DNA of 64,000 nt from NCBI GenBank assembly GCA_964016885.1, contig OZ024743.1, positions 147,870,001-147,934,000 on the forward strand, given 5' to 3'. Below the pieces are notes generated by a model, which had not been told where the DNA came from, did not search any database, and saw nothing but the letters and a program-made list of their open reading frames with translations. Shown piece by piece: positions 1,758 through 59,111 of this stretch. The DNA is from Eledone cirrhosa. Its lineage: Eukaryota. Position 1 is the stretch's first letter. Every line of letters begins with the position of its first letter. A program made the position numbers and the translations under genes.

Positions 1758-2337
1758 GTTCCATAAATTCTCATTTATAAATAATCATTTTAAAATCGTG
1801 TCTCCTACAGTTAATATATGATACTAAAACCAGAAATCAATTTCTGTTTCAATCGTAATATTTCAACAGCTGTAATAATTATAACCATCTTGCAAATTAA
1901 ATTTAGAAACATTCGTATGTTGTTAATTGAGAATGTGAAATGTAAAGAGCTTATATTGGTATTTTTATTAGTAGAGATTGGTTAATTTTGAACATCTATT
2001 AAATTGATATTGAACACTTGCGGTTAGTTCATTAGAAAGAAGTAATTACATCATCGGTTGTTTTAATACAATTGTGTGCTAATGAAATTTACAGCAAAAT
2101 TAGTTTATGCGACATGTTAAGTTAATATTATCAACATGGACTCCATCTGTTTAATTAATGTTTACAAGCTGATGCAAATTATATCAAATTAATTTGGGGC
2201 TCTATTAGGAATACAAATGGATTAAGACATGACTGAACACTTTCTCATAATTCTCTTTCCCAATATCACTCTATTTCTATCACGCTCATGTTTATTTCTG
2301 TACCACACGACTTTCGCACTCTCTCGCTCTCTCTCTC

Positions 2338-2380
<43 letters not shown>

Positions 2381-2536
2381 TTATATAAATTTTGAGTATA
2401 TGTTGGTTGTATACCAACACCTCAGTATGCAGGCTGGAGCACTCGACGAAGTGCGCAGGTTGGTTTGGTTACTCCGGAGTAATGTAAAATAAAGTTATAT
2501 AAAAAGTCAAATTTTTAAAATTTAGCTTCGTTTATT

Positions 2537-2591
2537 ACTGCTATATATATTTCAGTGACAGCCTTCTTTGGCTGTGACCTCTTCAGGCAGT
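2537..2591 (-). ncRNA. Minimal type I hammerhead ribozyme (H1)
   Basis: Reverse complement reads ACTGC-CTGAAGA-GGTCACAGCC-aaagaa-GGCTGTCACT-GAA-ATATATAT-A-GCAGT. Stem I is ACTGC/GCAGT; stem II is 10 bp with one C-C mismatch and a closing G-U; stem III is palindromic; the site is AUA. Confidence 0.85.
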
Positions 2592-2711
2592 CCGAATTAG
2601 TGTGATATAGACAAGTCTATACCACACTAATTCGGACTGCCTGAAGAGGTCACAGCCAAAGAAGGCTGTCACTGAAATATATATAGACAAGTCTATACCA
2701 CACTAATTCGG

Positions 2712-2766
2712 ACTGCCTGAAGAGGTCACAGCCAAAGAAGGCTGTCACTGAAATATATATAGCAGT
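2712..2766 (+). ncRNA. Minimal type I hammerhead ribozyme (H1)
   Basis: Same motif on the plus strand: CTGAAGA 2717-2723, GAAA 2750-2753, predicted cleavage after 2761. An upstream tandem copy (2636-2685) lacks the 3' strand of stem I. Confidence 0.85.
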
Positions 2767-2816
2767 AATAAACAAAGCTAACTTTTAAACATTTGACTTT
2801 TTATTTAACTTTATAT

Positions 2817-3450
<634 letters not shown>

Positions 3451-3524
3451 TCACACTCTGCTCTGTAAGAACATAGAGTGCTCAACCGGCATACCGCCTA
3501 TGGAAGCTTCTTAGCTACCATCAG

Positions 3525-3563
<39 letters not shown>

Positions 3564-3952
3564 ATCTCTGATGATATGGGATCGATTGAGCATTGGATAT
3601 CGAATGCTCTACTAAATATATAATATTATAGATGTAGCGAGATCTAGGCAAATAGATGTCTATTGAAACGTACGTAAGAACCGAATAAATCTCTTTTACT
3701 GCATCTTTCTGTTCTTTTTAATTCTCTATACACGCCCCGGAATATAGCTAAACTGGAATATACACCTTTTCTCTGCATTTCGTTGAGCACCACTCTTTTG
3801 TAAGCTGACATTCCACTACACGGTACATAACACTGTGTCCTGGAAAACATTAATGCACTCGTGCATAACCAATTATATATATATATATATATATAACTGT
3901 TTCATTCGAAGGGAATCATCAGGAAAGTTCTGTAGAAGTCATTATATCTTGC

Positions 3953-4072
3953 CATTCTGAGTTCAAATCACGCCGAGTTTAACTTTGCCTTTCATCCTTA
4001 CGGGGTCGATAAAATAAAGTACCAGTAACGTACTGGGTAATTGCTGGCCTTGTGCCAAAAGTAGAAACAATT
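3953..4072 (+). mobile_element. 5'-truncated tRNA-derived SINE (Nin/Deu-like core)
   Basis: B-box-like gagttcaaatc, core gcctttcatccttacggggtcgataaaataaagtaccag, and 3' end ccttgtgccaaaagtagaaacaatt. Confidence 0.9.
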
Positions 4073-6950: not shown

Positions 6951-7140
6951 ATATTTCTCTAGATATGTCTAGAATATACCTTATAATATTTGTCAATATA
7001 TTTCTCTTATTTGAAAACAGTCATGTTATCTTTGATAATCTTGCAAGAGTAACGTGGATAAACGAAATACTAGTAATATTTTGAACCTATAAACAATCAT
7101 CACACCTGCTAAATTAATGAAATTAAACAAGTTAGATGTA

Positions 7141-8037
7141 AGAGGTGTGTCAGAAAAGTTCCAGGGCTGATGTCACAAAATATTTATTTCAAACCCAAAC
7201 TTCACACTAGGAGTTTTCACCTTCAAAGTAATCCCCCTGGAGTCTAATGCACTTTTCTATCCTTTTCTGCCATGCTTGCATGTACTCCTGGAAGGATTCT
7301 TCCGGGATCCTCCGCAGTTCCGTCGTCACGGCCTTTTTGATGTCGTTCACGTCTTCAAAACGGGTACCCTCCGAGTCGTACTCGAAGATCCATGACTCAT
7401 CACCGGTGATGACTGTCCCTAGCAAGTCTGGTTCGGTTTCAAGACGCTCGAGGATGTCCTGGCACACTTGCATACGTCGACCCTTCTGGTCATGGTTCAG
7501 GAGTTTTGGCACCATCTTCGCGCAGACTTTCCGCATATCCAAATCTTCAGTGAGAATCTTCCACATGCTGTCCCGATTCATGCCCAGCTCATTTGGCATC
7601 AGTCGAACAGTCAGTCGACGATCGCTACGCACCATCTGCCTGACGCGCTCAATGTTGACCTCAGTTCTGGTTGTTGAGGGCCTTCCGCTCCTGGGGTCAT
7701 CTTCCACGTCCTCGCGTCCTTTTTTAAACCTCTTGCACCAGTCAAAAACACGTGAGCGTGACATCGTCTCATCTCCGTACTCTTGCTGCAGCAATCCCAG
7801 TGCTTCTGATGGAGTTTTCAAGTTTTGTTCGTTGCTCTGTGTTCATTGCTTGACGACCTGAAAAAGAGGACATGTAAATAAAATTATGAAGAAAAAAGTT
7901 TGATCGCTGCAGAGAGCTAAGATTACAGTTACATACTCCAGGGGGATTACTTTGAAGGAGAAAACTCTTAGTGTGAAGTTTGGATTTGAAATAAATCTTT
8001 TGTGACATCAGTCCTGGAACTTTTCTGACACACCTCG
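7141..8037 (-). mobile_element. Internally deleted mariner DNA transposon with ~100-bp inverted termini and TA TSD
   Basis: TA at 7139-7140 and 8038-8039. The termini 7141-7243 and ~7935-8037 are inverted copies (gaggtgtgtcagaaaagttccagg...). Confidence 0.93.
7207..7821 (-). pseudogene. Mariner transposase with catalytic core deleted
   Basis: HTH region (MSRSRVFDWCKRFKKGREDVEDDPRSGRPST), linker MVPKLL (WVPHEL-like), first catalytic Asp in ITGDESWIFEYD, then a direct in-frame jump to GTRFEDV...CIRLQGDYFEG. The second and third Asp motifs are absent, and the N-terminus is frameshifted. Confidence 0.9.
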
Positions 8038-8344
8038 TATATCGGCAAAGTAGAAAAGACTTGACGAAGGTGCCGTGCAGTTATACAGTACCCCAAACCA
8101 CAGGGCGGCAAAGCAAAGACCTTAACCACATTCACATACATGCACACACATGAACATAGATGCAGACATAGAAAAACACACGCGCACACACACAAACTCA
8201 TATATATATATGTGTGTGCGTGTGTGTGTGTATACGTGTGTGTGCGTGTGTGCGTGTGGGCGTGTGTGTTTGTAATATGGGTTCAACCAGGCCTAACCAG
8301 AGTAAGTAAGGAACTCAAAACATAGCAGATTATAAATATTTAAT

Positions 8345-8460
8345 ATAGAAATGGTTTATACAGGACTAGTACTGTTTCATTTGAAGGGAATCATCAGAAA
8401 AGCCCTGATGATTTCGTTCGTATGAAACAGTTCTTGTCCTCTATATGCCATTTCTGTATT
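8345..8460. repeat. Short fold-back with hammerhead-like cores in both arms (H6, weak)
   Basis: 'ctgtttcatttgaagggaatcatcag' is inverted to 'ctgatgatttcgttcgtatgaaacag'. Related copies at 3898-3940 (-) and 4140-4182 (+). Confidence 0.5.
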
Positions 8461-13830: not shown

Positions 13831-13887
<57 letters not shown>

Positions 13888-14015
13888 AAAGTTCTATTTT
13901 AAATTGTTGGGATACAACAAGTAAATATTTTTATAACTGATATAAAGCACTCGACAAGTATTTGGAGTAGATATACGATATTAATAAATGGAAACTATAT
14001 TTATAAAACCATATT

Positions 14016-14080
14016 TATTTCATTATACATATTTCAGGGATACCAAATGAAATTATAGTATGCCTTCATCAGACAAAATA
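14016..14080 (-). ncRNA. Minimal type I hammerhead ribozyme (H2)
   Basis: Reverse complement reads TATTTTGT-CTGATGA-AGGCATACTA-loop-TGGTATCCCT-GAA-ATATGTAT-A-ATGAAATA. Confidence 0.75.
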
Positions 14081-14187
14081 CAATATATAACAGTTTTACA
14101 AATAAGCTTTGACGTACCCTATTAAAATGCAACCATTATTTTTGGAAGCCATCCGGATACTGAGTTGTTTATATTATTTTAATAAGT

Positions 14188-14244
14188 CTGATGAAGGCAT
14201 ACCATAATTTAATTTGGTATCCCTGAAATATGTATAATGAAATA
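14188..14244 (+). ncRNA. Hammerhead (H2), core intact but stem I disrupted
   Basis: CTGATGA-AGGCATACCA-loop-TGGTATCCCT-GAAA-TATGTATA-ATGAAATA. An extra AATAA in the 5' strand of stem I breaks the pairing. Confidence 0.65.
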
Positions 14245-14282
14245 AATATGGTTTTATAAATATAGTTTCCATTTATTAATAT

Positions 14283-14350
<68 letters not shown>

Positions 14351-15370
14351 GTACTTGTCTATACCACACTAATTCGCCTGAAGAGGTCACAGCCAAAAAT
14401 GGCTGTCAATATAGCAATAATAAACGAAGCTAAATTTTAAACATTTGACTTTTTATTTAACTTTATTTTACATTACTCCGGAGTAACCAAACGAAACTGC
14501 GCACTTCGTCGATTGCTCCAGCCTGCATACTGAGGTGTTGGTATACAACCAACATATACTAAAAATCTGTATATATATATATATATGCATATATATATAT
14601 ATATATATAAATATATATAACAAAGGAATTGTGGTAAGGAACCAGTTGGACCATAACGCACCAGAGTACTCAATACTTAGGCTAGTAGAGTGGGAAATAG
14701 GAAAAAGTATGACTAGTCCAGAAATAGCCGTCGAAACGACTTAAGCCCTGCCGTCGGGGTCATACTTATCCCTATAAATATATATATATGTGGAAGGTTG
14801 ATGCGTGTATGTGTATGACTATCTGTGAGTAAGGGTTCATGTAATTTAGTAAAACAAATACATCATCTGACGGTGTTAACATTTGAATATTTACATTTTT
14901 ACGTTCTCGAAAATATATTTCTGTTATATCAATCATATTTAACGTTTTGTCTTATGTTTAAATGGTATATGTTGAAAAGTAATAGGAGTTATATACTAAA
15001 GGTTATTATTATGCCTATTGTATCACTAAAAACGACGATTTGGTAATCCCGTAAGGCAATTTGTTGGTAATAACAACTATCTCCCTCTCTTGTAACTGCC
15101 TTTAGAACTCGTGAGAGAAACGCAGATATTTTCATTGAAAAAATATGAAGATGCTGCTGCAAGAGAGAGGCGTCAACTATCTCAAGCAAAGATTTAGCAA
15201 ATAGAAACTTAATACCTAAGTAAGCTTAGATAAGAAAATTGCTAGACCAAAAATGGTGTGCGACAATAGAAGTTGGGTCGAAAATAAAACAGCAGAGACT
15301 ATGTTGTCATGTCATGAGATAAAGTGAGAATTAACATTTTGGTTGAAGTTCATTATCTATATATGAATAG

Positions 15371-15558
15371 GGCGGTGGATTGGCAGTATCGGTGGAGGGT
15401 CGGAAACCATGCTTTCCAGCATAGTTACGTCCCTTTACGATCTGAGTTCAAATCCCGCCGAGGTTGACTTTGCCTTTCATCCTTACGGGGTCGATAAAAT
15501 AAAGTACCAGTAATACACTGGATAATTGCTGGCCTTGTGCCAAAAAGTAGAAACAATT
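15371..15558 (+). mobile_element. Full-length tRNA-derived SINE with 18-bp TSD
   Basis: Same family as 6429. TSD attatctatatatgaata at 15352-15369 and 15556-15573. Confidence 0.95.
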
Positions 15559-15857
15559 ATCTATATATGAATATTTACGCATATACACGCACATTTATAT
15601 ATATGTTCGCTAACATACACATATTCGTTTAGAGTATACCGTTTATCTCTCTCTCTCTCTCTCTCTCTGATATATTACTCTATAACCCTATGACGTGCTC
15701 CAGTCGATAGTCTGAGTCCATGCTGGGGCACCGTCATTATATATATATATATCTATATATATATATATATACATATATAAACACATACATACACACACTT
15801 ATATATATTCATATATACGATATTAACAAATGGAAACTATATTTATAAAACCATATT

Positions 15858-15922
15858 TATTTCATTATACATATTTCAAGGACACCAAGTTAAATTATGG
15901 TGTGCTTTCATCAGATAAAATA
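15858..15922 (-). ncRNA. Minimal type I hammerhead ribozyme (H2)
   Basis: Reverse complement reads TATTTTAT-CTGATGA-AAGCACACCA-loop-TGGTGTCCTT-GAA-ATATGTAT-A-ATGAAATA. Stem II covaries with the 14-kb copies. Confidence 0.82.
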
Positions 15923-16469
15923 TAATATAAATCAGTTTTATAAATAAATATTGATATACCCTTAAATAATGCAACCATTACTGTTGGAAGCTCCCGGAGC
16001 TTACAACAGTAATGGTTGCATTCTTTAAGGGTACGTCTATATTTATTTATAAAACTGATCTATATTATATTTTATTTGATGAAAGCAGACCGTAATTTAA
16101 CTTGAAATATGTATAATGAAATAAATATGGTTTTATAAATATAGTTTCCATTTGTTAATATCGTATTTTTACTCCAAATATTTGTTGAGTGCTTTATATC
16201 AGTTATAAAAATATTTGCTTGTTGTATCCCAACAATTTAAATAGAACTTTTACATATATTCATATATATATATATATTTGTCGGGTCTATGTTTTTATGT
16301 TTGTATGTATGTGTTTATGTATGTATGTATACATACGAAACATTTGTATTGGAAGATTTCCAATTGAATTGTTGTAAAATCCTATTATGCATACTTATTC
16401 TTCGCTATTACTCTATCACCCTATTACGTGCTCCAGTCGATAGGCTGAGGCCATGCTGCGCACTGTCAT

Positions 16470-16795: not shown

Positions 16796-16861
<66 letters not shown>

Positions 16862-17101
16862 CGAAGGAAATGTGGTAAGGAACCAGGTGGAGCATAACGC
16901 ACCAAAGTACTCAATACTTAGGGTAGTAGAGTGGGTAATAGGAACCAGTAAGACCCCGATGGCTGAGCTCAAGCCGTTTCGACGGCTAATTCTGGACTAG
17001 AATTAGCCGTCGAAACGGCTTGAGCTCAGCCGTCAGGGTCTTACTGGTTCCTATATATATATATATATATATATACTGGATCTACCAACTCATAATATTA
17101 T

Positions 17102-17236
17102 AATTGTTTCTACTTTTTTGGCACAAGGCCAGCAATTACCCGGTACATTACTGGTACTTTATTTTATCGACCCCGTAAGGATGAAAGGCAAAGGGAACCT
17201 CTCCGCGGAAGGATTTGAACTCAGACCGTAAAGGGA
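17102..17236 (-). mobile_element. 5'-truncated SINE
   Basis: Reverse complement of the SINE core and tail, flanked by the near-duplicate actcata(a/c)tattataat. Confidence 0.88.
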
Positions 17237-17312
17237 CTCATACTATTATAATATTATAAAATTAAATCAAAAAAATGTGTTAACACTACAAATGAAATCA
17301 TTCTTTTCCTTT

Positions 17313-17373
<61 letters not shown>

Positions 17374-17586
17374 TAAGTTAAAGTGTACATCTATATATGT
17401 ATACGGAAGTATTAGTATGCATATAAATACACATATGTATACATATGTACATGTACCGAGCTTTTCACTAGACACTTTACAGTGAGTGTCCAGCTAGTCT
17501 GTATGTAAACAGATGAACCGGGTTTTAGAGTCATACGAGTTTTCAAGGAAACACATTTCCTCTATTCTCCAGAGAGCCAGACAGGA

Positions 17587-17629
17587 ATATTGGACTAGTT
17601 TCGATGTTATTACATCTCATCAGCAATAT
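17587..17629 (-). ncRNA. Canonical minimal type I hammerhead ribozyme (H3)
   Basis: Reverse complement reads ATATTG-CTGATGA-GATGT-aata-ACATC-GAA-ACTAGT-C-CAATAT. Stems I and II are perfect, G10.1-C11.1 is present, stem III is the palindrome ACUAGU, and the site is GUC. Confidence 0.93.
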
Positions 17630-18165
17630 ATACCTATCTTTCCGGCTTCTCTGGAGAATTGTAAAAGCACATATCGTTATATGCTTTTTCTATGAAAATC
17701 AGTAGTGGGCAGACTAATTTGCATAGAACGTGAGTCATTGTACGCACCGGTTGAGCGGAAACGATAAAAACGAATAACGAAACGAAATTAAATTTCGTTT
17801 CGCTTCTAACTCACTTTTGTATGACTGACGCTTAAACAATTAAGTTAAAGTGTACATCTATATATGTATACGGAAGTATTAGTATGCATATAAATACACA
17901 TATGTATACATATGTACATGTACCGAGCTTTTCACTAGACACTTTACAGTGAGTGTCCAGCTAGTCTGTATGTAAACAGACGAACCGGGTTTTAGAGTCA
18001 TACGAGTTTTCAAGGAACCGGTGAACCGGTGCGTTTCCGCTGAAACGGTGCGTACAATGACTCACGTTCTATGCAAATTAGTCTGCCCACTACTGATTTT
18101 CATAGAAAAAGCATATAACGATATGCGCTTTTACAATTCTCCAGAGAAGTCGGAAAGATAGGTAT

Positions 18166-18208
18166 ATATTGCTGATAAGATGTAATAACATCGAAACTAG
18201 TCCAATAT
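18166..18208 (+). ncRNA. Hammerhead (H3) with core mutation CTGATAA (G8A), probably inactive
   Basis: Identical to the 17587 copy except at core position 8. Confidence 0.8.
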
Positions 18209-18497
18209 TCCTGTCTGGCTCTCTGGAGAATAGAGGAAATGTGTTTCCTTGAAAACTCGTATGACTCTAAAACCCGGTTCGTCTGTTTACATACAGACTA
18301 GCTGGACACTCACTGTAAAGTGTCTAGTGAAAAGCTCGGTACATGTACATATGTATACATATGTGTATTTATATGCATACTAATACTTCCGTATACATAT
18401 ATAGATGTACACTTTAACTTAATTGTTTAAGCGTCAGTCATACAAAAGAGAGTTAGAAGCGAAACGAAATTTAATTTCGTTTCGTTATTCGTTTTTA

Positions 18498-18972
<475 letters not shown>

Positions 18973-19612: not shown

Positions 19613-20838
19613 TTGATATAATTGTTTTTGTTATTGATGTTATTATTGTTCTACTATTTCGACATGATAATTTACATCCTTTATCTTCGTAACTAGTGTA
19701 CCAAATAGTTATCATCAATAATATTTCCCCCACCCTCCAGGTCTCAACATGCCCGGGGACATAACATAGCGACCGGAGGACACGATGATTTTTCGGAGCC
19801 AAGGAATCTACAAAATAAACTTCTACGTTATATCATATATTTAACTCTGATATAAACATCATAGAGTGCTTGAAATTCCAATAGGATACTTAACCGAGAA
19901 AATCCGTGAGCCCAGCTTCACAGCCTAGTCTTGTGGCCGTTTCGGGTTAAGACTATAACTACGAGAAAACTAGTTAGTGGTAACTGATCCTTATTGTTTG
20001 TCTACTCTCCAATTCGATCCGTAAAATAATACATCTCTCAGTCACTTATTCCAACAGTTAACTGCAGAGATAGCAAACCCCGATAAAAAAGAGTATAAAA
20101 TATAGTATAGATTCAGATCCTAACTTATTATTGTTTTTATTTAGTCTTCCAGCACTAAAACATTTTAGCATTTTTTAACTAATTTCCTAGTTTAATGTCA
20201 TATTAACAATTAGTTTACTAATTTCGTGTCCTATATCCCCACATTGTTTTACACACTTCACTTTGACCTGATCCCTGGAGGTGTTGATGGATTTTAAGCG
20301 AATGGACTCTAGGGCGTGACACCAGACAAGTTGATATACGTGACTAAAATGTCACTATGAAATGCCATGGCGAGAATTCTACCGATAGTTGGTGCCGCGG
20401 AAGTATGGTGGTAAATAGGTATTAACGTTGTCACTAGCTTATAAGCGACTTGATGTTCAGAGAGGAAAGATTAACATTTTTCTTTCCACCCCGTGTTCTC
20501 TAAAGAACCTGAGGTAGAAAAAATAATGTTCGGAAGACCGTTTGGGGAAGCTGGATTAATACACTGTATAATCGTCAAACCCGTCGAAACATTTGGAATG
20601 GGAAATTTCCGAATGAATTGCTGTAAAAACTCGTTACGTTTATGTATTCTTCACTGTATACACTCCGCTTGCACCACCAGATGTAATTTGGGATGATTTA
20701 GGATGCTGAGGGCTTAACATGGAATACTTCGAGACCTATCAGTTACAATATATATATATATAACAAAGAAGGTGTGGTAAGAAACCAGGTGGACCATAAC
20801 GCATCAGAGTACTCGATAGTTAGGATAGCAGAATGGGT

Positions 20839-21419
20839 TTAATAATCAGGAGCTGATTATTCAGAGCGATTGCCGGTCCAGCAAAAATTAAGTATTAGGA
20901 CTGGGGCTCTGAAATAGCGATGTATACATAAATGTATGCATACTATATTTGGCAATATACGATATGTTTAATTAAAAACATTTTGAAGACCTTACGCTAT
21001 CATTTTAAAGTAGTGACTATGTCACTTCTTTTCAGCGAAAAAAATGCAGAGAAGCTAACAGTCTGTTTCATGCTGTTTGGCAATCATCAGAGCTACGAAC
21101 TGCCCTCTTGCGCCGATGCTGGACCGGCAATCGCTCTTTATAATCAGCTCCTGATTATTACTGGAATTCTATAATACTCCAGCTTCTATAATTTTCGGCG
21201 GAAGAGGGCAGTACGTAGCTATGATGATTGACAAACAGCATGAAACAGACTTAGCTTCTCTGCTTCTTTCGCCGAAAAGAGGTAAGTAACATAGTCACTA
21301 CTTTAAAATGATAGCGTAAGGTCTTCAAAATGTTTTTAATGAAACATACGGTATATTGCCAAATATATTATGCATACATTCATGTATACATCGCTATTTT
21401 AGAGCACCAATCCTAATAC

Positions 21420-21424
<5 letters not shown>
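20839..21424. mobile_element. Fold-back non-coding hammerhead element, family H7, adjoining (TA)n
   Basis: ~20890-21117 is inverted at ~21195-21422, and 20840-20883 is inverted at 21118-21160. Confidence 0.85.
21053..21094 (-). ncRNA. Minimal type I hammerhead ribozyme (H7)
   Basis: Reverse complement reads AGCT-CTGATGA-T-TGC-caaaca-GCA-T-GAA-ACAG-A-CTGT-T-AGCT. Stem III is near-palindromic and the site is GUU. There is an atypical U-U at 10.1/11.1. Confidence 0.7.
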
Positions 21425-34452: not shown

Positions 34453-37400
34453 TTTTCTTTGTTAACCACAAGGGTTTACATAAAGTAGACATTAAGGACA
34501 GTACAGGACAATACAGGACGGTACAAATGGGCATTTCTGCGTGTAAAAAAAACAGAGGATGTAATAAAATAACAAAGAAAAATTCCCCAATAGGGGGGAG
34601 ACTTCCGAGGGACATTTGTGGAGAAAGCCCATTAAAAGACCACAGTGACCCTGATCACCAGGGCAAGTGCCCTCTCCCAGTTTTCCACCGTTAATTTACA
34701 GACACATACACAGAGAAGGCCCATTTACTCGGGCCATACTTGCTTCTGTCACCCATTTTTCAACAAAATGCTGGGAAGAGAGCACTTCCCTCTCTACCCT
34801 GATTTTCCTTTTCAAATGAAATTTGAAAAAGTTAATCAGGGCATTACCGAAGAGGTAAGTGCTCGTCTTCAGCCCTTCAAAAATGTCCACCATACTATCT
34901 CTTTCGCCATGGCCACCAGACAGATTACAACTGCCTGCCCTTCTCGGCTAAAGGAAGAGGGCGGGGCAATCCTCACGATGGACTCAGCTGATAGCTAGAT
35001 CAGTCCCACACGCGACAACAGGTGTTTGACATAAACCCACAAGTCAGCAATGCTCGGACACTGGACGAGTGCGTGCAGGACAGTTTCGTCGCCCTGTGCG
35101 CATCTCGGACATGCCCGGCTGACGGCACCTCCATGCTTGTAGAGTTTATCTCGAACTGGCAAAGCTCCTCGGTAGCACTTCCAGGCCAGAGATTTCTGGA
35201 AGTTCTCCATAGGCCCCGACCCGAAAGTTCTTCCGAAAAGGTTGGCTAGTTGATTTTCGTCGACGCCTAGAGTTTCCCCAAGTACGTCGTCGCTCTTCCC
35301 CTCCACTTATCCTCTATAGAACGCCAAGGTGGAGTTTCCACCGATCACATTGCCAGATTGGTCGAGGGCTGTGAGCGCCTGAAGAGATTCCAGTCTCCAG
35401 GCGCTCCCTCTCGGTCTTCGCTTGACCCAGGACTGCAGCTCCGTCAAGGAAACGAGCTGGGGAAATACGTGTCTAGCAAACGGCGACCACACCTGATCAC
35501 CGTCGAGGAAGAGGTGGAGAAGTCGTAGCCTGAGCGCGTGTCTGCGCATCATCAGCCACAGCATTCCTAGCCCTCCAAGTAGCGGGTGTTGACAGCAGAT
35601 GGACCACCTGACCATCGGAGCGCGTCCCTTCCACAAAAAGCGAAAGAGCAAACGTTCCAGCGCAGTCAGGCGAGGCTTAGGACAAGGTACGACGGTGAGG
35701 CGGTAGTAGATGACGGACGCGATATACGCGTTAGCCACCTCCGCTCGACCTTTCAGGGATATCTTCCTCTCGGCCCATTTCTGGGTGAGAGAAGCCACCC
35801 TGCTCGTCACCTCGTCCCAGTTTTTGTCCGTCTGGAGCTCCGGACCGAACCAGACCCCTAGCAATTTAACCGGTCCGTCCGTCCAGCGCCCGACGACGCT
35901 GTTGGACGGCATGGACCTGCCTCTCCAGGTGCCGAGCTGCAGGCCCACTGACTTTTCCTGGTTGATCATTGGTCCTGTCACCGCTTCGTATTCTCTTAGT
36001 GTAGTGCCGATCGCCTCGATGTGCTTGGCGTTCGACACCACTGCGGTGACATCGTCCGCATATGCTGACACGGATCTTCCGCTCCTATTTCGCGCGGGAC
36101 CCCGCTCAACGTCTCCAGTTTGTGCAGTAATGGCTCGAGAGTCAATACGTACAAGAGGGACGAGAGGGGACATCCTTGGCGGACCGAGCGCATGATGTTG
36201 AACGGTTCCGAAAGGTGACCGTTCACTCTCACCACAGAGCAGATGTCGCTGTGCATGGCAGCGATCCAGCATCTGAAGACGGGCACAAAGGCAGCCGCCC
36301 TCAGGACTGCCGATAGGTAACGATGGTCGACACTATCGAAAGCTTTCGACTGATCTAAATTGATCAAGGTCACACCCATTCCAGGTTCCCTAGCTACCCT
36401 CTCTATGATGTATCGCATGAGGTGGAGGTTGTCGTGGATGGATCTGTCGGGAATGGCGCATGTCTGCGCCTCTACCACCAGACTCCAACAACAAGCGCCA
36501 AATTCTTTGCTAGCACCGTGGCCAAAATCTTGAACTCTGTGTTTAGCAGAGTTATGGGCCTAAAATTATCTATGTTATCCCCTTGTTCGGATCCTTTCTC
36601 AGCAGCACCACAGCTCCTCGGCTCACAGAGCTGGGAATTCTCCCGTTCTGTAGTCAGTTGCAGTAGAAGTCCGCCAAGAGGCCTCCGAACAAGTCTGGCA
36701 TCTGTACGTAAAGTTCATAGGGCAGACCATCCAAACCAGGCGATTTGCCCCTTGTGCAGCTAGTCATTGCCTCCCGTATTTCAGCGGCTGTTATCAGCTT
36801 TTCGCAACACTCCGCCTCAGTGACCGAGATCCGCGGCAGTCCGTCGAGGTAGACACTAAAGTCCATCACTTGACCCGGCCCACCGCTGCCCCCGAACAGC
36901 TGAGCGAAGTGTCGCTGAAAAGCTTCACACATTTGCCCGGGATCGTGTAGCATGTGTCCGTCGTGGTCTACCAAAGAGCTGATCGTGGCTTTGTTGCCAC
37001 GACGCGCCTCCGCCACTCGGGCGCATTGAACGGCTTTCGTCCCCTCGTGCCTGAGAGCACGCACCCTTGCTCTGACAACGCAGCCTTAGTGCTTTGCATT
37101 GAAGAATTGGTCAAGGGCCAATTTCGCCGCAAGCACGTCGGTCGCGATGCCTTTGTTAAGCGCCTCGTCTAATTTTCTAACTAGTTCTCCTTCCGCTCTA
37201 TTTTTCTCTATTGCTAAAGCCTTACTAAACCTAATGGACTCTATTCTAATCGCTCTTTTCAGAGCAAACCACCACTTGTTGTTGACGTTGGCTCCCGTCA
37301 TCGCCCGCTTAACTAGTTCGCTAATCCGGTCTCTGTAGGCCTTGCGCGCTGGTAAGGACGCGTTTAGCTTCCAGTAGACGGGTCCTCGTCTATGAAGCCT

Positions 37401-37989
37401 ATCTAAGTCAAGCACACAGATCACGAATTTGTGGTCCGTGTAGCTGACTATCTTGAATTGTGGACTGCCTATGCTAGACCTATCTATTTCTCTACAAACT
37501 ATTCTATCTAGATATGATCTGGATGACCCTATGCGATTTGTCAAAGTCCACATTGGCACATTCGGGAAATCCAATCGGTACCTGTCAGACAGTTCAAAAC
37601 GCCTGAGCAGGTTGGTGAGGCTCTTGCACCATCCTCCCCTATCCGCTAATTCGACACAGTCCCAGCGTGCATCTAAGATCCCGTTCCAGTCGCCCACTAA
37701 CACTAAAGAGCGGGACGTTCCAAGAAAGGTCTCCAGATGCTGGAAGAAATCAGGCCGCCCTGCTCCTGTCGGGGCATAGACGGCCACTAGCCTGAAAGCT
37801 TGCCCGTCTCCGCTGGTCACATCTAGCACCACCAACTTACCTTCTGGGTCCAGGAAGATGGCCCGTATGGCTAGATCCAAACCTCTCCGAAAAAGCACAG
37901 CAACTCCTCCCCCGATCCCGGACGGCTGGGAGATGCGTACACATCGTAGCCGCCGAAGTTCGGTGCGAAGGCCCGTGCTTCGGAGATTC
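34404..37989 (-). mobile_element. Tx1/L1-type LINE copy A (ORF2: APE endonuclease, RT, C-terminal Zn finger), frameshifted, with (TTA)n tail
   Basis: FRLVAVYAP, LVGDWN, SYLDRI and YTDH (APE); GKSPGLDGLP, DQSKAFD, SVRQGCPLS and AYADD (RT); CPRC...ETVLHALVQC. Tail at 34404-34451. Confidence 0.95.
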
Positions 37990-40900
37990 GTACAAGAGGG
38001 ACGAGAGGAGACAACCCTGGTGGACCGAGCGCATGATGCTGAACGGCTGCGACAGGTAACCGTTCACCCTCACAACTGAGCAGCTGTACATCGCAGCGAT
38101 CCAACCCTGGCACGGCCCGAAACCGGCTGCCTCGAGGACCGCCGCCAGTTACCGATGGTCGATCCTATCGAATGCTTTGGATTGATCGGGGCCCCACCCG
38201 TGCCAGGTTGCTTAACCAACCTCTCTATGATTATCGCATGAGGATGAGGTTGTCGTGTATGAATCTGTCCTGAATGGCGCATGTGTGGGCCTCTCCCACC
38301 AGACCCTTGACGACAATCACCAACCTCGTTGCTAACACCTTGGCCAAAATCTTGAACTCTGCGTTTAACAGGGTTATGGGCCTGAAATTATCAATAACAT
38401 ATCCCTTGTTCGGGTCTTTTCCCAGCAGCGCCACCGCTCCCCGGCTCACAAAACTGGAAATGCCCCTGTTCTGCTGCCAGTTGCACTAGACGTCCGCTAA
38501 GAGGTCACCGAACAAGTCTGACATAAATGCATAAAAATCATAGGGAAGACCATCCAAACCTGGCGATTTACCCCTCGTCCAGTTAGCCATCGCTTCCCGT
38601 ATTTCACCGGCTGTTATTGGCTGTTCGCAACTCTGTTGCGGTCGTCGAGAGCCGAGGCAGTCCATCGAGGTATGCACTGAAGTGCATATCCCGATCCGGC
38701 CCGCCGCTGCTCCCGAACAGTTCAGAAAAAGACCGAATTGTGGCTTTGTTGCCAAGTCGCGCCTCTGCCACCCGGGTCCATTGGACAGTTTTGTCCCCTC
38801 GTTTTTCAGAGCACGCGCTCTAGCTCTGACAAAGCAGCCTTCGTGTTTTGCGTTGAAGAATTGGTCGAGTGCCAATCTCACCGCAAGCACATCGGTTACG
38901 ATGCCTGTCCTAAACGCCTCTTCTAACTTTCTGACTAACTCTCTCTCTACTCTATTTTCCTCTATCACTAGTCCTTCGCTAAACCTAATCGACTCTACTT
39001 TAATTTCCCTTTTCAGGGCGAACCACCACCTGTTGTTGACAACCGCTCCCGTCAACGCACGCTTAAGTAATAGGCTAATCCGGTTTCTGTAGGCTTTGCG
39101 CGCCGGGAAAGTCGCGTTCAATTGCAGTAACCGGGTCCTTGTCTATGAAGTCTGTCTATGTCAATCTCACAGATCACAAATTTGTGGTCAGTGTAGTCGA
39201 CTATTTTAAATTGTGGACAACTTATACTAGCCTTATCTAGTTCCCTGCAGAATACCCTATCGAGATTCGATCTGGATGACCCGATGCGGTTTGTCCAGTC
39301 TACATTGGCACATTCGGGTGATCCAGTCGATACCTGTCAGACAGTTCAAAACGTCTGAGGAGGTTGGTGAGGCTCTTGCACCCCCTCCCCTATCCACTAG
39401 CCCCACACAATCCCAGCGTGCATCCACGATACCGTTCCAGTCGCCCACTAATACTAAAGATCGGGACGTTCCAAGAAAGGTCTCTAGACGTCTAAAGTAA
39501 TCTGGCCGTCCTGTCCCTGTTGGGGCGTAGACGGCTACTAGCCTGAAAGCATTGTCTTCGCTGCCGGTCACGTCCAGCACCACCGACTTACCTTCTGGGT
39601 CTAGGAAGATGGCCCGTATGGCGAGATCCAAGCCTCTCCGAAAAAGGACAGCCACCCTTCCCATGATCCTGGACGTTCTGGGAGATGCGTATACATCGTA
39701 GCCGCCGAAGATCGGTGCGAAGGCTCGTGCTTCGGAGATTCTGGTCTCGCTGATGGCCACCACATCTATGTTTAGTGACCTGAGGTTGTTGAGCAGGTGA
39801 CCCTGCTTCCAAGATGACCCCAGGCCACGTGCATTTATACTGCCTATTCTGAGTACGGCCATGATGGATGAGAAACGGGGCAAGTGAGAAAGGGTCACTA
39901 CTTTGATCGTGTGGTGAAGGGACAGTAGAACCGTCCCTTGGGCTGGTCATGGGTGTTTCTAAGAGGATGTCAGTGTATATCCTCTTGGTAACCGACCCTC
40001 TATAGTCTCCAACTGCGTTGGGGAATTTTTGTTTTAAAGTGTGTACTGTTTTATTGAGATTTCAATGATGCTTATGTTTATCGGGAGAGTTCTTGGTTTT
40101 GGTGGGGTGCAGTAGTTTTTCTATGTGATGTCTGTGTGCTGCTTTATATATTGTATGAGTTCTTTTTTTGCCATGTTTATGGCTGTGTACTTTTTGGGGG
40201 GAGGGGTGATTTTGTTGCTGTTTTCTTCTTGTTGCTGTTTGGTGTGTGTGTTTTGTTTTGTTTGCGCTGTTGGTGTTTTTGTGATGGATGTGGTGGGGTG
40301 GTTGTTGTTGGCGTTGGTGCTTGTGGTGGTGATGGTGTTGGTGGTGGTGTTGCTGCCTTTACTCCTCTTTGTGTGCTTTCGCTTTTGGAGGGTGAATATA
40401 AGGTTTTTTTTTTGTTTTTTGTTTTTTGTGGCAAACCGTTTGCCACTTCACTCCCGCCTCAAACTCCATGTCGGAATCCGTGGCGTCTGGGTGGGATATG
40501 TGCTCCACGGCTGTTGGTGGTGGTAGTGGAGCCTTCTTCGGCAATTTTGTTGCTGGTGTAGCTACTTCAAATGTAGCTATTTGTGTTGCCGCCACTAATG
40601 CTGCTGCTTTATTTGTCCGTGGCCTTGGTACGGATGCCACGGACGTTGCCCTCCTACTCACCGTGGAAGGGGCTTCTGCATTTGTTGCCTGCCCTGCTCT
40701 TGGTAGCAGCGGACCAGGTATTGGAAGGAAAGGGGCCTTCTTCTTCGCTGTCTTCTGCGGGCAAAAGGCCCTGAGGTGACCCTTTGACCCACAGAGATAA
40801 CATTTTGGCCGTCTTCCTTTTACGCTTAGAGGGAGTTGGAGTCCTTCCTCAACGTCTATGATATCGGAGATAGCGTCGATACATTCCTGGTCAGTTTGTA

Positions 40901-41775
40901 TAAGCTTTTGCATGCCTATACCTGACCAGTTCTCTCTCCCTATTTTCTACTTGCAGCATGGTCGTCCTGTTCTCGATTCCAGCAAGGACAGACGCGGCCA
41001 GCCAATGTATGGTCACGTCGGGTGGGTCCTGGGTCACTTTAACTCTCACAATTTTCTGCCCGCAGTAGGAGGACATCATGATTATCTTCTCACTCTTTAG
41101 GCTTTCCAAAGAGTGAGACTTAGCTTCTTGGGGGAGGGGGGGGGGGGCGAAAAGTACGTCTAATGTGGCGTATTTTCTGCCTCTGGCGATGTGGGTTTTG
41201 CGTGCCCAGACGCACCCCAAAACCTTTTGGATTTGGACCTCCGTGGCTCTCTCCACCCGATATGAGATTTTGCTTACGGTGCGGTAAGTCACCGTCCGTA
41301 GCTGCTGGTCTTTGAAAAAATCGGGTGGAGGTTTCAGGGAGACTCTATTGGCGCTTCTTGTCACCATGGCCCTTGCTACTGCCATCTCCTCCTCTGTGAC
41401 TAACACTGTCTCGATATTTCGGGCGACACCTGCAAAAGAAGTGGTATCGTCTTCAGCAGCACCACTATTGATGCCGCTACTTGTCTTGCTGGTGGTGCTG
41501 AGATCGCTGTTACAGGTATCCATGTCATTGTTGATGTTTTCGTTGGTACTGTTGCTGTTGTTACTGTTATTGTAGCTGTTGTTATTATTGTTATTTTTAT
41601 TGATACTGTTCCTACTATTATTGTTGTTATGGCTGTTGTTATTGTCATTGTTATTGTCGTTCTCGACCATAGCGCTGTTATTTTTGTTATTGTCGTTCTC
41701 GACTTTATCGCTGTTATTTTTGTTTTTGCTGTTTTTATTGATGGTCTTGTTGTTAGTGTTATTGTTGGTGTTGTT
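37990..41775 (-). mobile_element. Tx1/L1-type LINE copy B: ORF1 plus 5' half of ORF2, 3' part lost
   Basis: ORF2 starts MAVLRIGSINARGL (ATG at 39862) with APE motifs, and RT runs to QGCLLSSLLY. ORF1 pieces lie at 40359-40913 and 40891-~41700. Confidence 0.93.
40125..41700 (-). pseudogene. LINE ORF1 (gag-like) with CCHC zinc knuckle, frameshifted
   Basis: GRRPKCYLCGSKGHLRAFC (CX2CX4HX4C), Asn-rich N-terminus, Pro/Thr/Ala linker and Lys-rich tract. Homologous to 63272-63931. Confidence 0.88.
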
Positions 41776-44046
41776 AATAATGATTTCATTTATTGGCCAC
41801 AAGGGCCGACATATAGGGGACAATACAAAAGACTCGAGTAAACAATATGAATAAACAAAGTAACAATAAAGTAACAATAAAATTACAACAAGAAAAAATT
41901 CCCCAATAGGGGTGATGACCACCTAGGGTTCGTTCAGGTACCCCACCAGTACTGAACGACCCGACGCTTCGAGAGCACCCTGGAAAAGCACCCTTCTCCT
42001 CTTCAAATTTACCTACCTTCAGCCGCATGACCAGAGTAGGCCCACTCACACGGCCATTCTCGCCACATTCACCCACCTTTCAGCAAATGTACTGGGGGGC
42101 AGCACTTCTCTCTCCACCCTCACCTTCCTTTCCAAGTGAAACTTGAAAAAGTTGATGAGGGATTGGCCGAAGAGAAAAGTGTCTGTCTTCAGTCCTTTCA
42201 ACCTCGTCCACCATACAACCTCTTTCGCTACGGCCACCAGACAGAGGAAAATTGCCTGCCCTTCCTGGCCAAAAGAAGGCGGCGGGTCGATCTTCACTAT
42301 GGACTCGGCTGATCGCCGGATCCGTTCTACAGGCGACAACAGCTGTTCAACATAACTCCACAAGTCAGTAATGCACGGACACTGGACGAGTGCGTGCAGA
42401 GCGGTTTCGTCGCTCTCCGCGCATCTCGGGCAGGTCCCTCTGACAGCACGTCCGTGCCTGTAGAGTTTATCTCGAACCGGCAGTGCCCCCCGGTAGCACT
42501 GCCAAGCGAGGGATTTTTGGAAATTATCCATCGTCCCCGGCTCGAAAGTCCTCCGGTACAGACTGGTTAGTTCGACTTCGTTGACTCCCAGAGCCTCTCC
42601 GAGTTCGTCGTCGCGCTTGCCCACCACTAATCCTCTATAGAACTCGAGAGTGAAAGTTCCACTGACCGCATTGCCCGCCTGGTAGAGGGCAGTGAGTGAC
42701 TGGCAACATTCCAGATGCCAGTCACCCAGTCTCGGTCTCTTCTTGTCCCAGGACTGCAACTCAGTCAAAGAAACGAGCTGCGGAAAGGCCCGTCTGACAA
42801 ACGGCGACCACACCTCTTCACCGTTTAGGCAGAATATATGGAGATGCCGCAGCCCCAGCGCATGTCTGCGCATCATTAGCCACGGCATGCCCAGCCTTCC
42901 ACGTAGAAGGTGCTGGCAGCAGATGGACCGCCTCACCAGCAGAACCTGACCCCTCGACAAGAATTTGAAGAGAAGTCGCTCCAAGATGGCGAGTTGCGAA
43001 CGGGGGCAAGGGACGTCAATCAGACGGTAGTAGATGACGGACGCGATGTACGCTTGCCAACTCCGCCTGACCTTTCAGTGATAACTTCATCACAGCCCAT
43101 TTCTGGGTGAGACTGACTACCCTGCCCGTCACCTCGTCCCAATTCTTATCCACCTGGAGGTCTGGCCCGAACCAAACCCCTAGCAACTTTACCGGTCCGT
43201 CCGTCCAGCGCCTAACGACGCTGTTGGACGGCATAGACTTGCCTCTCCAGGTGCCGAGTTGCAAGCCCACTGACTTTTCCGGGTTTAGTTTTGCTCCCGT
43301 CAACCTTTCATATTCCTCCAATAAGTTGCCGACCATCTCGATTTCTGAGATGTCCGACACCATCACGGTGATGTCGTCCGCATAAGCCGACACAGCCTTT
43401 CCGCGTCCCGGTTCGAGCGGGATGCCCTGCAACAGCTCCAGCTTCCGCAGTAAAGGCTCGAGAGTCAATACGTACAGAAGGGAGGAGAGAGGGCACCCTT
43501 GACGGACCGATCGGGAGACCTGAAACGGTTTCGAGAGGTGGCCATTAATTTTGACCATCGAACAGGTGCCGCTGTGCATTGCAGCGATCCGGCTTCTGAA
43601 GACGGGGCCGAAGCCAGCCGCCTTGAGGACAACCTCCAGGTACCGATGGTCGATCCTATCAAATGCTTTCGATTGATTTAAATTGCTCAGAGTACCACCG
43701 AAGCCAGGTTTACACCCTACCCTCTCTATGATGTATCGCATTAGGTGGAGGTTGTCGTGTATGGACCTGGTTGGGATTGCGCAAGTTTGCGCCTCCCCAA
43801 CCAAATCCCCGACGACAAGCTCCAACCTCTTCGCTAACACCCTGGCCAAAATCTTAAACTCTGTGTTGAGCAGAGTTATAGGCCTGAAATTGTCTAATGT
43901 GTCCCTCTTGTTCTCGTCTTTCCTTATCAGCGTCACTACGCCCCGGCTCACAGAACTGGAAATACTCCCGTTTTACTGCCAGTTGCAGTAGAGCACTTCG
44001 AGGAGATTGGAGAACAAGTCTGGCACATTTACGTAAAGCTCGTAGG
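41776..44046 (-). mobile_element. Tx1/L1-type LINE copy C (different subfamily), 5'-truncated
   Basis: NFRPITLLN, QSKAFD, SVRQGCPLS and AYADD (43016-43951); CPRC...HALVQC (42046-42984). The 3' UTR ends cccttgtggccaataaatgaaatcattatt. Confidence 0.95.
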
Positions 44047-44048
44047 AA

Positions 44049-46669
44049 AATAGACTGGAAATAAAGTACAAAACTAGGAGGAAAAGGCTAAATATTATCA
44101 TAGAAGAACTGAAGCAACGCATTGTAGCAAAGAGTGCAAAAATTAGGCGATACGAGAGCAGAGTCAGTCAGTATAGACAGAACAGAATGTTTGACAACAA
44201 CCAGAAGATGTTGTTTGGACAGCTTCAAGGGAAAGAAAGAGCCAACGACTTAATCCCTGAGGCGGAACAAACTAAGACATTCTGGAAAGGAATATGGGAG
44301 CAGGATGTTAAACATAATGACCAGGCAGTGTGGATTGAGAGAGTACAAAAGGAGATTAGTGAACAGGCACACCAACAAACTGATTTGAGTATCACAGTTG
44401 AAACTCTCAAGGTGCAGGCCAAAAAACTAACCAACTGGAAATCACCCAGCGCAGATGTTGTGCAGGGATATTGGATTAAAAATGTAACATCCCTCTACCC
44501 GAAACTGACAACCATGTTCAATGACTGCTTGATGTCAGGTGAGGTACCAAAGGTACCACAGATCTGGTAATGAAAGACCGAATCAAGGGTAATGATGTTA
44601 CCAACTATAGACCTATCACATGTCTGTCCGTAATGTGGAAACTGTTGACAAGCATTGTGTCTGAGGAAATCTACCATCACCTCCACACTAACAATTTGTT
44701 ACCGGACGAACAGAAAGGATGCCGAAAGAAGTCCCGTGGTACAAAGGACCAGTTACTTATTGATAAGATGATAATGAGGAATTGCAAGAGGAGACACACT
44801 GGTCTTGTCATGGGATGGATAGACTACAAAAAGGCATTTGACATGGTGCCTCATTCTTGGATCACCAAAAGTCTAGAGATCTTCAAGGTGGCAGATAACA
44901 TGAGACAGTTGTTGAGCAAAAGTATGAAGTCCTGGAAAACAGCGTTAACATCAGCTGGAGAATCCTTGGGAGGCGTGAAGATCAAGAGAGGTATCTTCCA
45001 GGGAGATAGTCTGTCCCCTCTGTTGTTTGTCCTTGCCCTGATGCCCCTGACCATTATACTGTGAAACGTGAGAGCAGGATACAAGTTGGGAAAGGGAGAG
45101 CTTACCATCAATCACCTCAGCTTCATGGACGATCTTAAGCTCTTCGGGAAGAGTGAGAAGGAGTTGGATGTGCTTGTTGACACTGTCCGTATTTTCAGCA
45201 ATGATATATGTTTGAAATTTGGTATTAGTAAGTGTGGAGTCCTTGTGATGAAGAGGGGTAAATTGAGCAGAAGCAACGGAATCCAGGTACCAACAGGTGA
45301 GATGATAAAGGAAATTGACACTGAAGAAGGATACAAGTATTTGGGTATTCTGGAGGCTGATGACATCAAGAACAAAAAAATGAAGGAATTGTTAAGAACT
45401 GAATACATTCGGAGAGTAAGGGGCGTATTAAAGTCACATCTGAACAGTAGGAATGCCATAAGTGCAGTAAATTCCCGAGCTGTGTCTATTATTAGATACA
45501 GTGCGGAATTCTGAGATGGAATGGTGCTGAACAAAAAGAAATTGATAGGAAGACTAGGAAGCTATTGACTATATACAACATGTTCCACAAGAAGAGTGAT
45601 GTCGATAGACTCTACTTAAGGAGATCTGAAGGGGGAAAAGGTATTATCAGCATAGAGGATTGTGTTCAGATGTAGAAAAACAACCTACACAAATACGTGA
45701 CCGATAGTAAGGAGCCAATGCTCAGAATTGTACTGAAGGAGAGGACAATAGACCAGGGGATATCCAAGGAGGAAATAACAACGAGGAGAAAGAGCAACCT
45801 TCATCAAAAATCCCTTCACAGTACCTTTTTGAGAAAACGGAATTCAGATATCCGCAGACATGGAACTGGTTGAGACTAGGAGACCTTAAAAAGGCTACAG
45901 AAGGAATGCTAATGGCCGCGCAAGAGCAGGCCCTCAAAACGAAGTGGCTGAAACACCATATTTACAAAGAGGAGGCTAGCCCACTGTGCAGGATCTGTGT
46001 AGAGAGAGAGGAGACTGTGGATCACATTGTATCCGAGTGTAAACACCAAGCCCAGACTCACTATAAAGGCTGGAGACATGATGTGATGGGCAGGGTGAGC
46101 CACTGGCACCTATGCAAAGTAAACAATTTACCACATTCCGAGAAGTGGTATGATCATAAGCCAGAGTCGGTGATAGAAAACGATCAGGTGAAGGTGCTAT
46201 GGGATTTTAGGATACAGACGGACAAGAAACTGGAACAAAATAGACCTGACCTGGTGGTTTTGGACAAGGAAAAAAGATCGTGCCTGATTGTGGATGTGGC
46301 CTGCCCATTCGACACGAGAGTGCAAGAGAAGGAAAGGGAGAAAATTATCCGATACCAGGACTTAAAGTGGGAGGTAAAAAGGATTTGGAACTGCCATGAA
46401 GTCAAAGTGGTCCCGATTGTCATAGGCGCACTAGGTAGTATCTCAAAACGTTTCCAGGGATGGTTAAAGAAAATTGGCTCCGCCCCACTTTTTGGAACGC
46501 TTCAAAAGGCATGCTTGCTGGGAACAGCAAGAACTATCCGATACGTCCTGAATATCTGAGGCTGCAGGTAGTGGCTTGATATTCATTTCAACAAACTTTC
46601 CAGTTAACTAACATCAATGATTGAGACTGAAAGAATAATAATAAAAATAATAATGATAATAATAATAAT
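44049..46669 (+). mobile_element. R4/Dong-type (REL) non-LTR retrotransposon, 5'-truncated, with stops and an (AAT)n tail
   Basis: [36 protein letters not shown] and YKYLG (RT); CRIC...ETVDHIVSEC, RHD, NRPDLVV, DVACP and VPIVIGALG (Zn finger plus REL endonuclease). Tail at 46634-46669. Confidence 0.92.
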
Positions 46670-54705: not shown

Positions 54706-55467
54706 TCCTTCCTTCCTGTTGTTATTTTTATTGATGATGAAAATGATGTTGTTTTTGTTGTTATTGTTAGTATTATGAATATTATTAAAGTAGTTTTTTT
54801 TTGTTGTCATTTATTGTTGTCATTTTTGTTTTGTCATTGTTGTTATGTGACATATACGTTGTTTTTATTAATACTAGTTTTAGATTCCATTTCGTTTACA
54901 TTTTTTGCATTATATTGTTATTTTTATTTTCCATCGGTTTTGACATTTTTTTATCTCCGTAAAGTAAGAGAATTAAAATGACCCGTTCCACCTTTCTAGA
55001 AATTTCTAAACATTAGGATGACAGGGCAAGTGTGTGTGTTTTAATAGGAATAAGAGTATGTGCATATGTAAACATATGCATGGTTATGTATATGTAAAGT
55101 CAATGATAGCGAGATTTATATATGTATGTATAATCTCATAAATCGACATAGCTACAAACGTAAACATGCGATACATATATATACATACGAACATTCATGT
55201 ATATATATATATAAAAATATAATATATATATATATATATATATATCCAAGGAGTGTAACGTGAAGTTACTGTAGGTGAGCACTCGATCTTTAGGTTCACG
55301 TCAGTGGCGAGGTGTAGAACTAGCAGAGGTCCGACAAGCTTTTGACTCCAGAGTCAGGTCAGATCGATACAGATCGAAGCTTGCGCGTCACCAATTAATA
55401 AACGTAATGAAAGCTTGACAAATCGTCCTTGTATTATTATATATATATATATATATATATATATCAT

Positions 55468-55677
55468 AATTGTTTCTACTTTAGGCACGAGGCCAGCAAA
55501 TTACCAGTGCATTACTGGTACTTTATTTTATCGACTTCGTAAGGATGAAAGGCAAAGTCAACCTGAGTTCAAATCCCGCCGAGGTTGACTTTGCCTTTCA
55601 TCCTTACGGGGTCGATAAAATAAAGTACCAGTAATGCACTGGTTAATTGCTGACCTTGTGCCTAAAGTAGAAACAAT
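55468..55677. mobile_element. Head-to-head inverted pair of truncated SINEs inside (TA)n
   Basis: 55468-55563 (-) and ~55563-55677 (+) are both 3' halves of the SINE. Confidence 0.92.
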
Positions 55678-55680
55678 TAT

Positions 55681-55722
<42 letters not shown>

Positions 55723-59062: not shown

Positions 59063-59111
<49 letters not shown>

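Follow-up and report, generated by a model that had tools for sequence, protein, structure and literature searches.

A hammerhead-bearing palindrome in Eledone cirrhosa, read as a probable Penelope-type fold-back stump with a microhomology-bounded 76-nt tandem

A locus with three hammerhead cores was analyzed in a 64,000-nt stretch of the Eledone cirrhosa genome (hereafter the window, i.e., the whole stretch of DNA that was analyzed), whose AT-rich and microsatellite-rich eukaryotic sequence contains LINE-like and mariner-like remnants. Most likely, the locus is a Penelope-type fold-back stump in which a microhomology-driven duplication later took place at the DNA level. A Penelope-type enzyme would have nicked a (TA)n run and reverse-transcribed the end of the element, after which the new strand would have folded onto itself at a 2-bp mini-palindrome (2611-2616) and been copied into a mirror arm. 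Later, a strand at stem III would have slipped back to the centre, both being TA-rich, giving the 76-nt tandem by slippage or repair between two ATATAG matches; the half-dimer fold of the resulting RNA, with its one predicted cut after 2761, may then be a by-product of the duplication. The locus looks ordinary, with no good evidence for reverse transcription of a self-cut RNA, and as read here it matters little: the family has very many copies, and this one is decayed and bears a local duplication.

The hammerhead call made in the initial annotation was borne out. The conserved core (CUGANGA ... GAAA ... UH) is present in all three copies with the triplet AUA; each CTGAAGA core (Table 1) is followed by a 9-bp stem II and GAAA-TATATATA, and stem III is the short palindrome ATATATAT, which is likewise palindromic in the minus copy, where one C-C mismatch lies within the 9 bp of stem II. 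The core pattern had 24 matches in the 64-kb window (overlapping matches of one core were counted separately) compared to 4.2 +/- 3.1 in shuffled sequences, and none of 100 shuffles reached 24. The description of a triple hammerhead holds for the cores but not for whole ribozymes, of which there are only two. Two type I scans, both of which required stem I, returned the minus copy and plus copy 2 only; in these the stem I closing strand 3' of the cleavage site is present (5 bp; 2762-2766 in plus copy 2), whereas in plus copy 1 it is absent. The latter copy was missed by the scans because it is followed by GACAA instead of GCAGT, its stem III continuing to 2685 with no 3' strand for stem I. Rfam gave no match at gathering scores in the 64-kb window. 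The 50 sub-threshold matches at 2300-3500, mostly miRNA hairpin models lying on palindromes and including no hammerhead, were set aside as generic hairpin matches.

Table 1. Features of the hammerhead-bearing palindrome, its flanks, and the second copy of the family (window coordinates; cleavage positions are predictions)
Feature	Position	Strand	Remarks
Left (TA)n run	2338-2387		period 2, 25 copies
One-sided extension of left arm (~93 nt), tail-like	2389-2481	-	predicted small hairpin beside the TA run at its end
Left palindrome arm	2482-2616	-	family sense on minus strand
Complete type I hammerhead (minus copy)	2537-2591	-	stem I 5 bp; core 2586-2580; predicted cut 2542/2541
Fold-back centre	2605-2623		near-perfect hairpin; 2-nt AA loop at 2613/2614
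Tandem unit 1 (76 nt; plus copy 1)	2605-2680	+	fold-back centre and most of a hammerhead; core 2641-2647
ATATAG microhomology at tandem junction	2681-2686	+	identical to 2605-2610; spans 2685/2686, the equivalent of the cleavage bond
Tandem unit 2 with complete type I hammerhead (plus copy 2)	2681-2766	+	core 2717-2723; predicted cut 2761/2762
Right arm remainder	2767-2817	+	stops about 93 nt before the end of the left arm
Right (TA)n run	2818-2848		
Second family copy, single arm with full extension	14340-14573	+	hammerhead broken by 5-nt and 9-nt deletions

All three copies lie inside a palindrome of ~430 nt centred at 2613/2614 with (TA)n runs on both sides, a frame that the initial annotation missed. 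The arms extend over 2482-2612 and 2615-2821 and are separated by a 2-nt loop. The left (TA)n run is likely the insertion target, and contigs of another run likewise enter a TA run before 2389; as both flanks are (TA)n, a target-site duplication cannot be told apart. The sequence of the one-sided extension recurs in the second family copy (14474-14573).

The family was surveyed by aligning four of 23 listed public runs (X1, X4, X5, and X21) to one arm (2385-2625) at 85% likeness; the results refer to the loose ends and variants listed, beyond which lie 42 more rows of variants and 224 of loose ends, and copy ends are poorly detected by short contigs and by reads of reduced-representation libraries. 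The arm was matched by 2,623 contigs of X1 and 6,446 reads of X21, indicating that the repeat is high-copy. Of 82 variant rows, 40 were listed, and none of these falls in the catalytic core. The family's own sequence diverges from the locus past 2616, with loose ends behind this position in 24 contigs of X1 and 2 of X4; other copies continue into a shared upstream sequence (read over 30 letters only), which agrees with the beginning of the 14340 copy rather than with the plus arm at the locus. Several other signals were discarded. Piles of read ends at 2388, 2519, and 2598 in X21 are library cut sites, all of them AATT sites in a RAD-seq run whose library we infer to have been made with an AATT cutter; agreement among the loose letters is no more than 0.34-0.38 at 2519 and 2598. 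Loose ends before 2536 (458 reads and 10 contigs), considered as truncations, belong instead to a subfamily with a short insertion. A pattern scan of sequence collections found no locus for a 22-nt pattern, and the 80 metagenome and two viral loci with a shorter pattern were all attributed to chance, their best alignments spanning 19-33 nt only.

The locus is likely the pseudo-LTR (pLTR) stump of a Penelope-like retrotransposon (PLE). This assignment rests on layout, since no reverse transcriptase (RT) or GIY-YIG ORF is linked to the family: none of 26 chosen ORFs of the window gave a Penelope-type match, a six-frame motif search of the window found no convincing Penelope RT or GIY-YIG motif, and the RT matches in the window sit 40 kb away beside other LINE-like ORFs. 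At least three other hammerhead palindromes of the same layout (13968-14292, 15815-16166, and 17366-18429) carry one-sided extensions of 83, 89, and 68 nt, respectively, and are counted as support for the fold-back explanation. Arkhipova et al. described pLTRs arranged head-to-head, in which the inverted junction is palindromic, the tail lies on one side, and the targets are AT-rich, and interpreted head-to-head layouts as self-priming (PMC3846280); Craig et al. reported the same pLTR layouts together with (TA)n targeting in a sister clade (PMC8557442). The locus resembles Adineta Pen2/Pen3 (PMC3846280; PMC8557442) in its head-to-head arms with 3' ends outward, junction palindrome, one-sided extension, AT-rich or (TA)n target, and hammerhead in the repeat, whereas it differs in the length of the extension (~93 nt versus a tail of 30-40 nt), in having neither an ORF nor a resolvable target-site duplication, and in the additional 76-nt tandem over the centre. 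A MITE reading was also considered and rejected, as it leaves the single-arm 14340 copy and the one-sided extension unexplained.

Minimal pLTR hammerheads have a long stem II, a short stem I, and a palindromic stem III, and occur as opposite-strand pairs 100-700 bp apart (PMC4209133). The locus shares with them an intact core, a 5-bp stem I, a long stem II, a short palindromic stem III, an opposite-strand pair (~130 nt apart), and many dispersed copies; unlike them, it has no unpaired base at 9/10.1, a G-U instead of a G-C pair at 10.1-11.1, and a mismatch inside the 9-bp stem II. Both the unpaired base and the G10.1-C11.1 pair are common features of minimal hammerheads (PMC4209133) and not requirements of the fold, and in the family at large the G-U becomes the usual G-C in about a third (about 33%) of the depth of X1. 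Tandem units with a type I hammerhead are also found in non-LTR retrozymes, for which an origin from PLE pLTRs has been proposed (PMC7229834; bioRxiv 2026.07.22.740005). However, a retrozyme unit is ~170-400 nt long (PMC7229834) and retrozymes contain two or more successive units with a whole hammerhead in each (bioRxiv 2026.07.22.740005), whereas the unit here is 76 nt, is present in 2.1 copies, and lacks the stem I 3' strand in unit 1, and no monomer cleaved at both ends can be released; a retrozyme reading was therefore rejected on unit length and on the whole hammerhead per unit.

The 76-nt tandem dimer noticed initially is exact over 82 nt (2605-2686 equals 2681-2762 at 100% identity). 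Its first copy stops at A2685, which equals N17, i.e., the predicted cleavage position. The initial claim of a junction at the cleavage site stands insofar as the microhomology window covers the bond, but the 6-nt ATATAG makes the breakpoint ambiguous over seven bonds, any of which could be the true one, so that the junction cannot be placed at the bond. Coincidence of the junction with the bond can be traced to stem III, which lies just 5' of the bond and is itself a TA run. The opening bases of the tandem unit come from the antisense side of the hairpin centre and not from the family's own leader. Because the centre of the fold-back lies inside the duplicated unit, the fold-back must have come first and the duplication afterwards.

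The possibility raised in the initial annotation, that a self-cleaved RNA was reverse-transcribed and left its trace in the junction, here from palindromic donor transcripts, is judged very unlikely in either of its variants (the enzyme copied one RNA and jumped to the 3' end that cleavage at A17 had left on another, or it copied a 76-nt circle). The microhomology window spans the bond exactly, for which the chance is about 8% in a random window of seven bonds; Cervera and de la Pena proposed a scheme with cleavage, circularisation, and reverse transcription of more than one unit (PMC4209133). However, among direct matches of at least 6 nt that could duplicate a whole core, four of nine cover a cleavage bond (8 of 26 for matches of at least 5 nt), and TA microhomology, which had been offered as the alternative, fits better. 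A ligated product should moreover restore A17-GCAGT, whereas the junction reads A17-GACAA, taken from the antisense centre; a 5' end at 2610 would be required, for which there is no source; and a palindromic donor would have to cleave inside its own long hairpin, at a cost of 27 kcal/mol for the monomer fold and 90 kcal/mol for the half-dimer. Hammerhead cleavage was found to be protein-assisted and dispensable for insertion in one in vitro system by Frangieh et al., with no RNA-seq reads ending at the cleavage site (PMC11167929).

Junctions in other copies of the family, which had been suggested as a test of clustering at the NUH site, were surveyed among the joints and loose ends listed from the four runs. 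None of the 12 ends of the six listed joints lies at the bond, and no loose end at 2541/2542 is among those listed, the smallest of which are supported by 362 reads (X21) and six contigs (X1). Three of the 12 listed joint ends, compared to an expected 1.2 (P = 0.11), are no more than 12 nt away from the bond, including a joint at 2550 with two reads and TA letters between; these speak for a self-cleaved RNA. In the 14340 copy neither end is at the cleavage bond and the 9-nt deletion ends about 5 nt before it; in a neighbouring hammerhead family, an extra copy ends 43 nt past its own bond (18245 versus 18202). A limited literature search found no account of PLE junctions at hammerhead sites, from which no absence is claimed. 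A 95-nt record of depth 265 in X5 (a run labelled as another organism, in which eight records matched) covers 2553-2616 and reads, in our own interpretation of a cyclic contig, as a 65-nt repeat unit of the hammerhead 5' part, successive units being joined at 2553, which is 11 nt to the 5' side of the bond.

Slippage of the nascent second strand at the TA-rich stem III during insertion, followed by re-priming at the hairpin centre, would produce the same tandem; it would still be microhomology-driven and would need no ribozyme cleavage. Penelope insertions typically contain pieces in tandem or inverted order (PMC8557442; PMC3846280), and a neighbouring hammerhead element carries an extra piece that is 99% identical. 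The rare T2564 is common to all three copies, where A is found in 578,417 of 578,749 summed contig depth (X1) and in 3,894 of 3,964 reads (X21), suggesting a single template, which agrees with the favoured reading as well, or later homogenisation. On the other hand, copying across the centre at that stage needs either the opposite strand of a completed hairpin or another fold-back at exactly the base used before, and the two tandem units differ less from each other than the arms do (0 of 76 versus 6 of 131 differences, P about 0.03). Dating by tandem identity is weakened in turn by the inner arms, which are also nearly identical (1 of 76 differences versus 5 of 55 outside, Fisher P = 0.08). 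Duplication in the course of insertion is accordingly regarded as improbable, and a later event at the DNA level is preferred.

Two copies that are 100% identical could also be an artefact of assembly or sequencing, given the near-perfect palindrome. The joints listed from the four public runs aligned to 2385-2625 do not include the tandem junction, which therefore has no confirmation from independent reads; A2605 of the window is in no X1 contig, and the best run contains 0.67 of the sampled words. Nevertheless, repeats of this kind interrupt short contigs, and another individual may be the source of X1, so that this blank says little, while a microhomology junction is the usual trace of natural duplication and a similar short repeat unit occurs in X5. 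An artefact is considered very unlikely.

The proposal that the tandem allows a dimeric fold was upheld in part. In an RNA covering 2612-2800, a half-dimer can be drawn that combines the catalytic strand of copy 1 with the substrate strand of copy 2 through an 8-bp stem III; its energy is -38.0 kcal/mol, compared to -36.2 for the copy 2 monomer and -43.7 for the minimum free energy (MFE) fold, i.e., 5.7 kcal/mol above the MFE, and the stem III between the copies is already present in the unconstrained MFE fold of 2630-2772. It is, however, not a true dimer, having one active site and one predicted cut, after 2761. Its cost is 8.6 kcal/mol for an RNA starting at 2600, 29 from 2580, and 90 for the whole element; once 30 nt or more of the left, inverted arm are included, the penalty is 29-90 kcal/mol and the long hairpin wins, and a monomer hammerhead fold within the long hairpin costs 27 kcal/mol. 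Such energies ignore tertiary contacts and proteins; on them, the half-dimer fold would be possible only in an RNA that starts near the centre of the palindrome. The accompanying statement that minimal hammerheads cleave efficiently as dimers was overstated: dimeric constructs had low activity according to Cervera and de la Pena (PMC4209133), and one of nine Xenopus dimers was cleaved (bioRxiv 2026.07.22.740005), although axolotl dimers were cleaved better than monomers (PMC7229834).

A bolder extension would be that the (UA)n 3' end of a cleaved RNA pairs with TA-rich primers and that a Penelope-type RT jumps onto it, the locus being both a record of this step and the seed of a 76-nt half-dimer retrozyme-like array; we give this a similarly low probability to that of the self-cleaved RNA itself. 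If true, an RT jump onto self-cleaved RNA would give the pLTR hammerhead a new role in transposition. In the system reported, cleavage was dispensable in vitro (PMC11167929). The locus also calls for caution, as every rearrangement driven by TA matches will seem to mark the cleavage site wherever a family has a TA run for its stem III. A single junction gives no answer, whereas the high-copy family could power a test of whether copy ends cluster at the bond.

Additional hammerhead-bearing and palindromic elements were observed elsewhere in the window. A second hammerhead family with stem III ATATGTAT has two palindromic copies (13861-14351 and 15735-16277) with one-sided extensions of 83-89 nt; its outer part has short motifs and a small terminal hairpin in common with the 2389-2817 family, and the short arms of both families end just before a TACTCC motif. 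The segment 17366-18497 is a young three-part element with arms 98-99% identical and an ACTAGT stem III hammerhead, in the order inverted arm, extra 253-nt inverted piece, and direct arm; this ACTAGT family would be a good non-TA control for junction tests. Hammerhead-like cores of other families were detected at 20840-21424, 3890-3922, and 8367-8435; the copy at 3890-3922 enters (TA)n within stem III, and the cores at 8367-8397 (minus strand) and 8405-8435 (plus strand) are head-to-head with only 7 nt between them. The palindrome at 3142-3451 has a stem III-like motif (GAAAC-AATT-GTA) and, in both arms, CTCGAG at the position expected for the CTGANGA box, and is read as a hammerhead that has decayed or varied.

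One more family of palindromes, which have a one-sided extension of ~75 nt, is located at 2846-3035, 14640-14775, 16860-17054, and 20750-20840 in TA runs adjoining hammerhead elements; scans for hammerheads in this family found none. A further repeat forms a head-to-head palindrome in (TA)n at 55438-55709 and occurs singly at about 3950-4070, 15430-15560, 17100-17240, and 18800-18930. It resembles a tRNA-related SINE, and if it is one, RNAs other than those with hammerheads would undergo the same fold-back. The remaining elements are ordinary, comprising several broken LINE-like ORFs with endonuclease and RT domains (35300-46560 and 59100-62600) and a mariner-like remnant at 7135-8043 with inverted ends of 109 nt.
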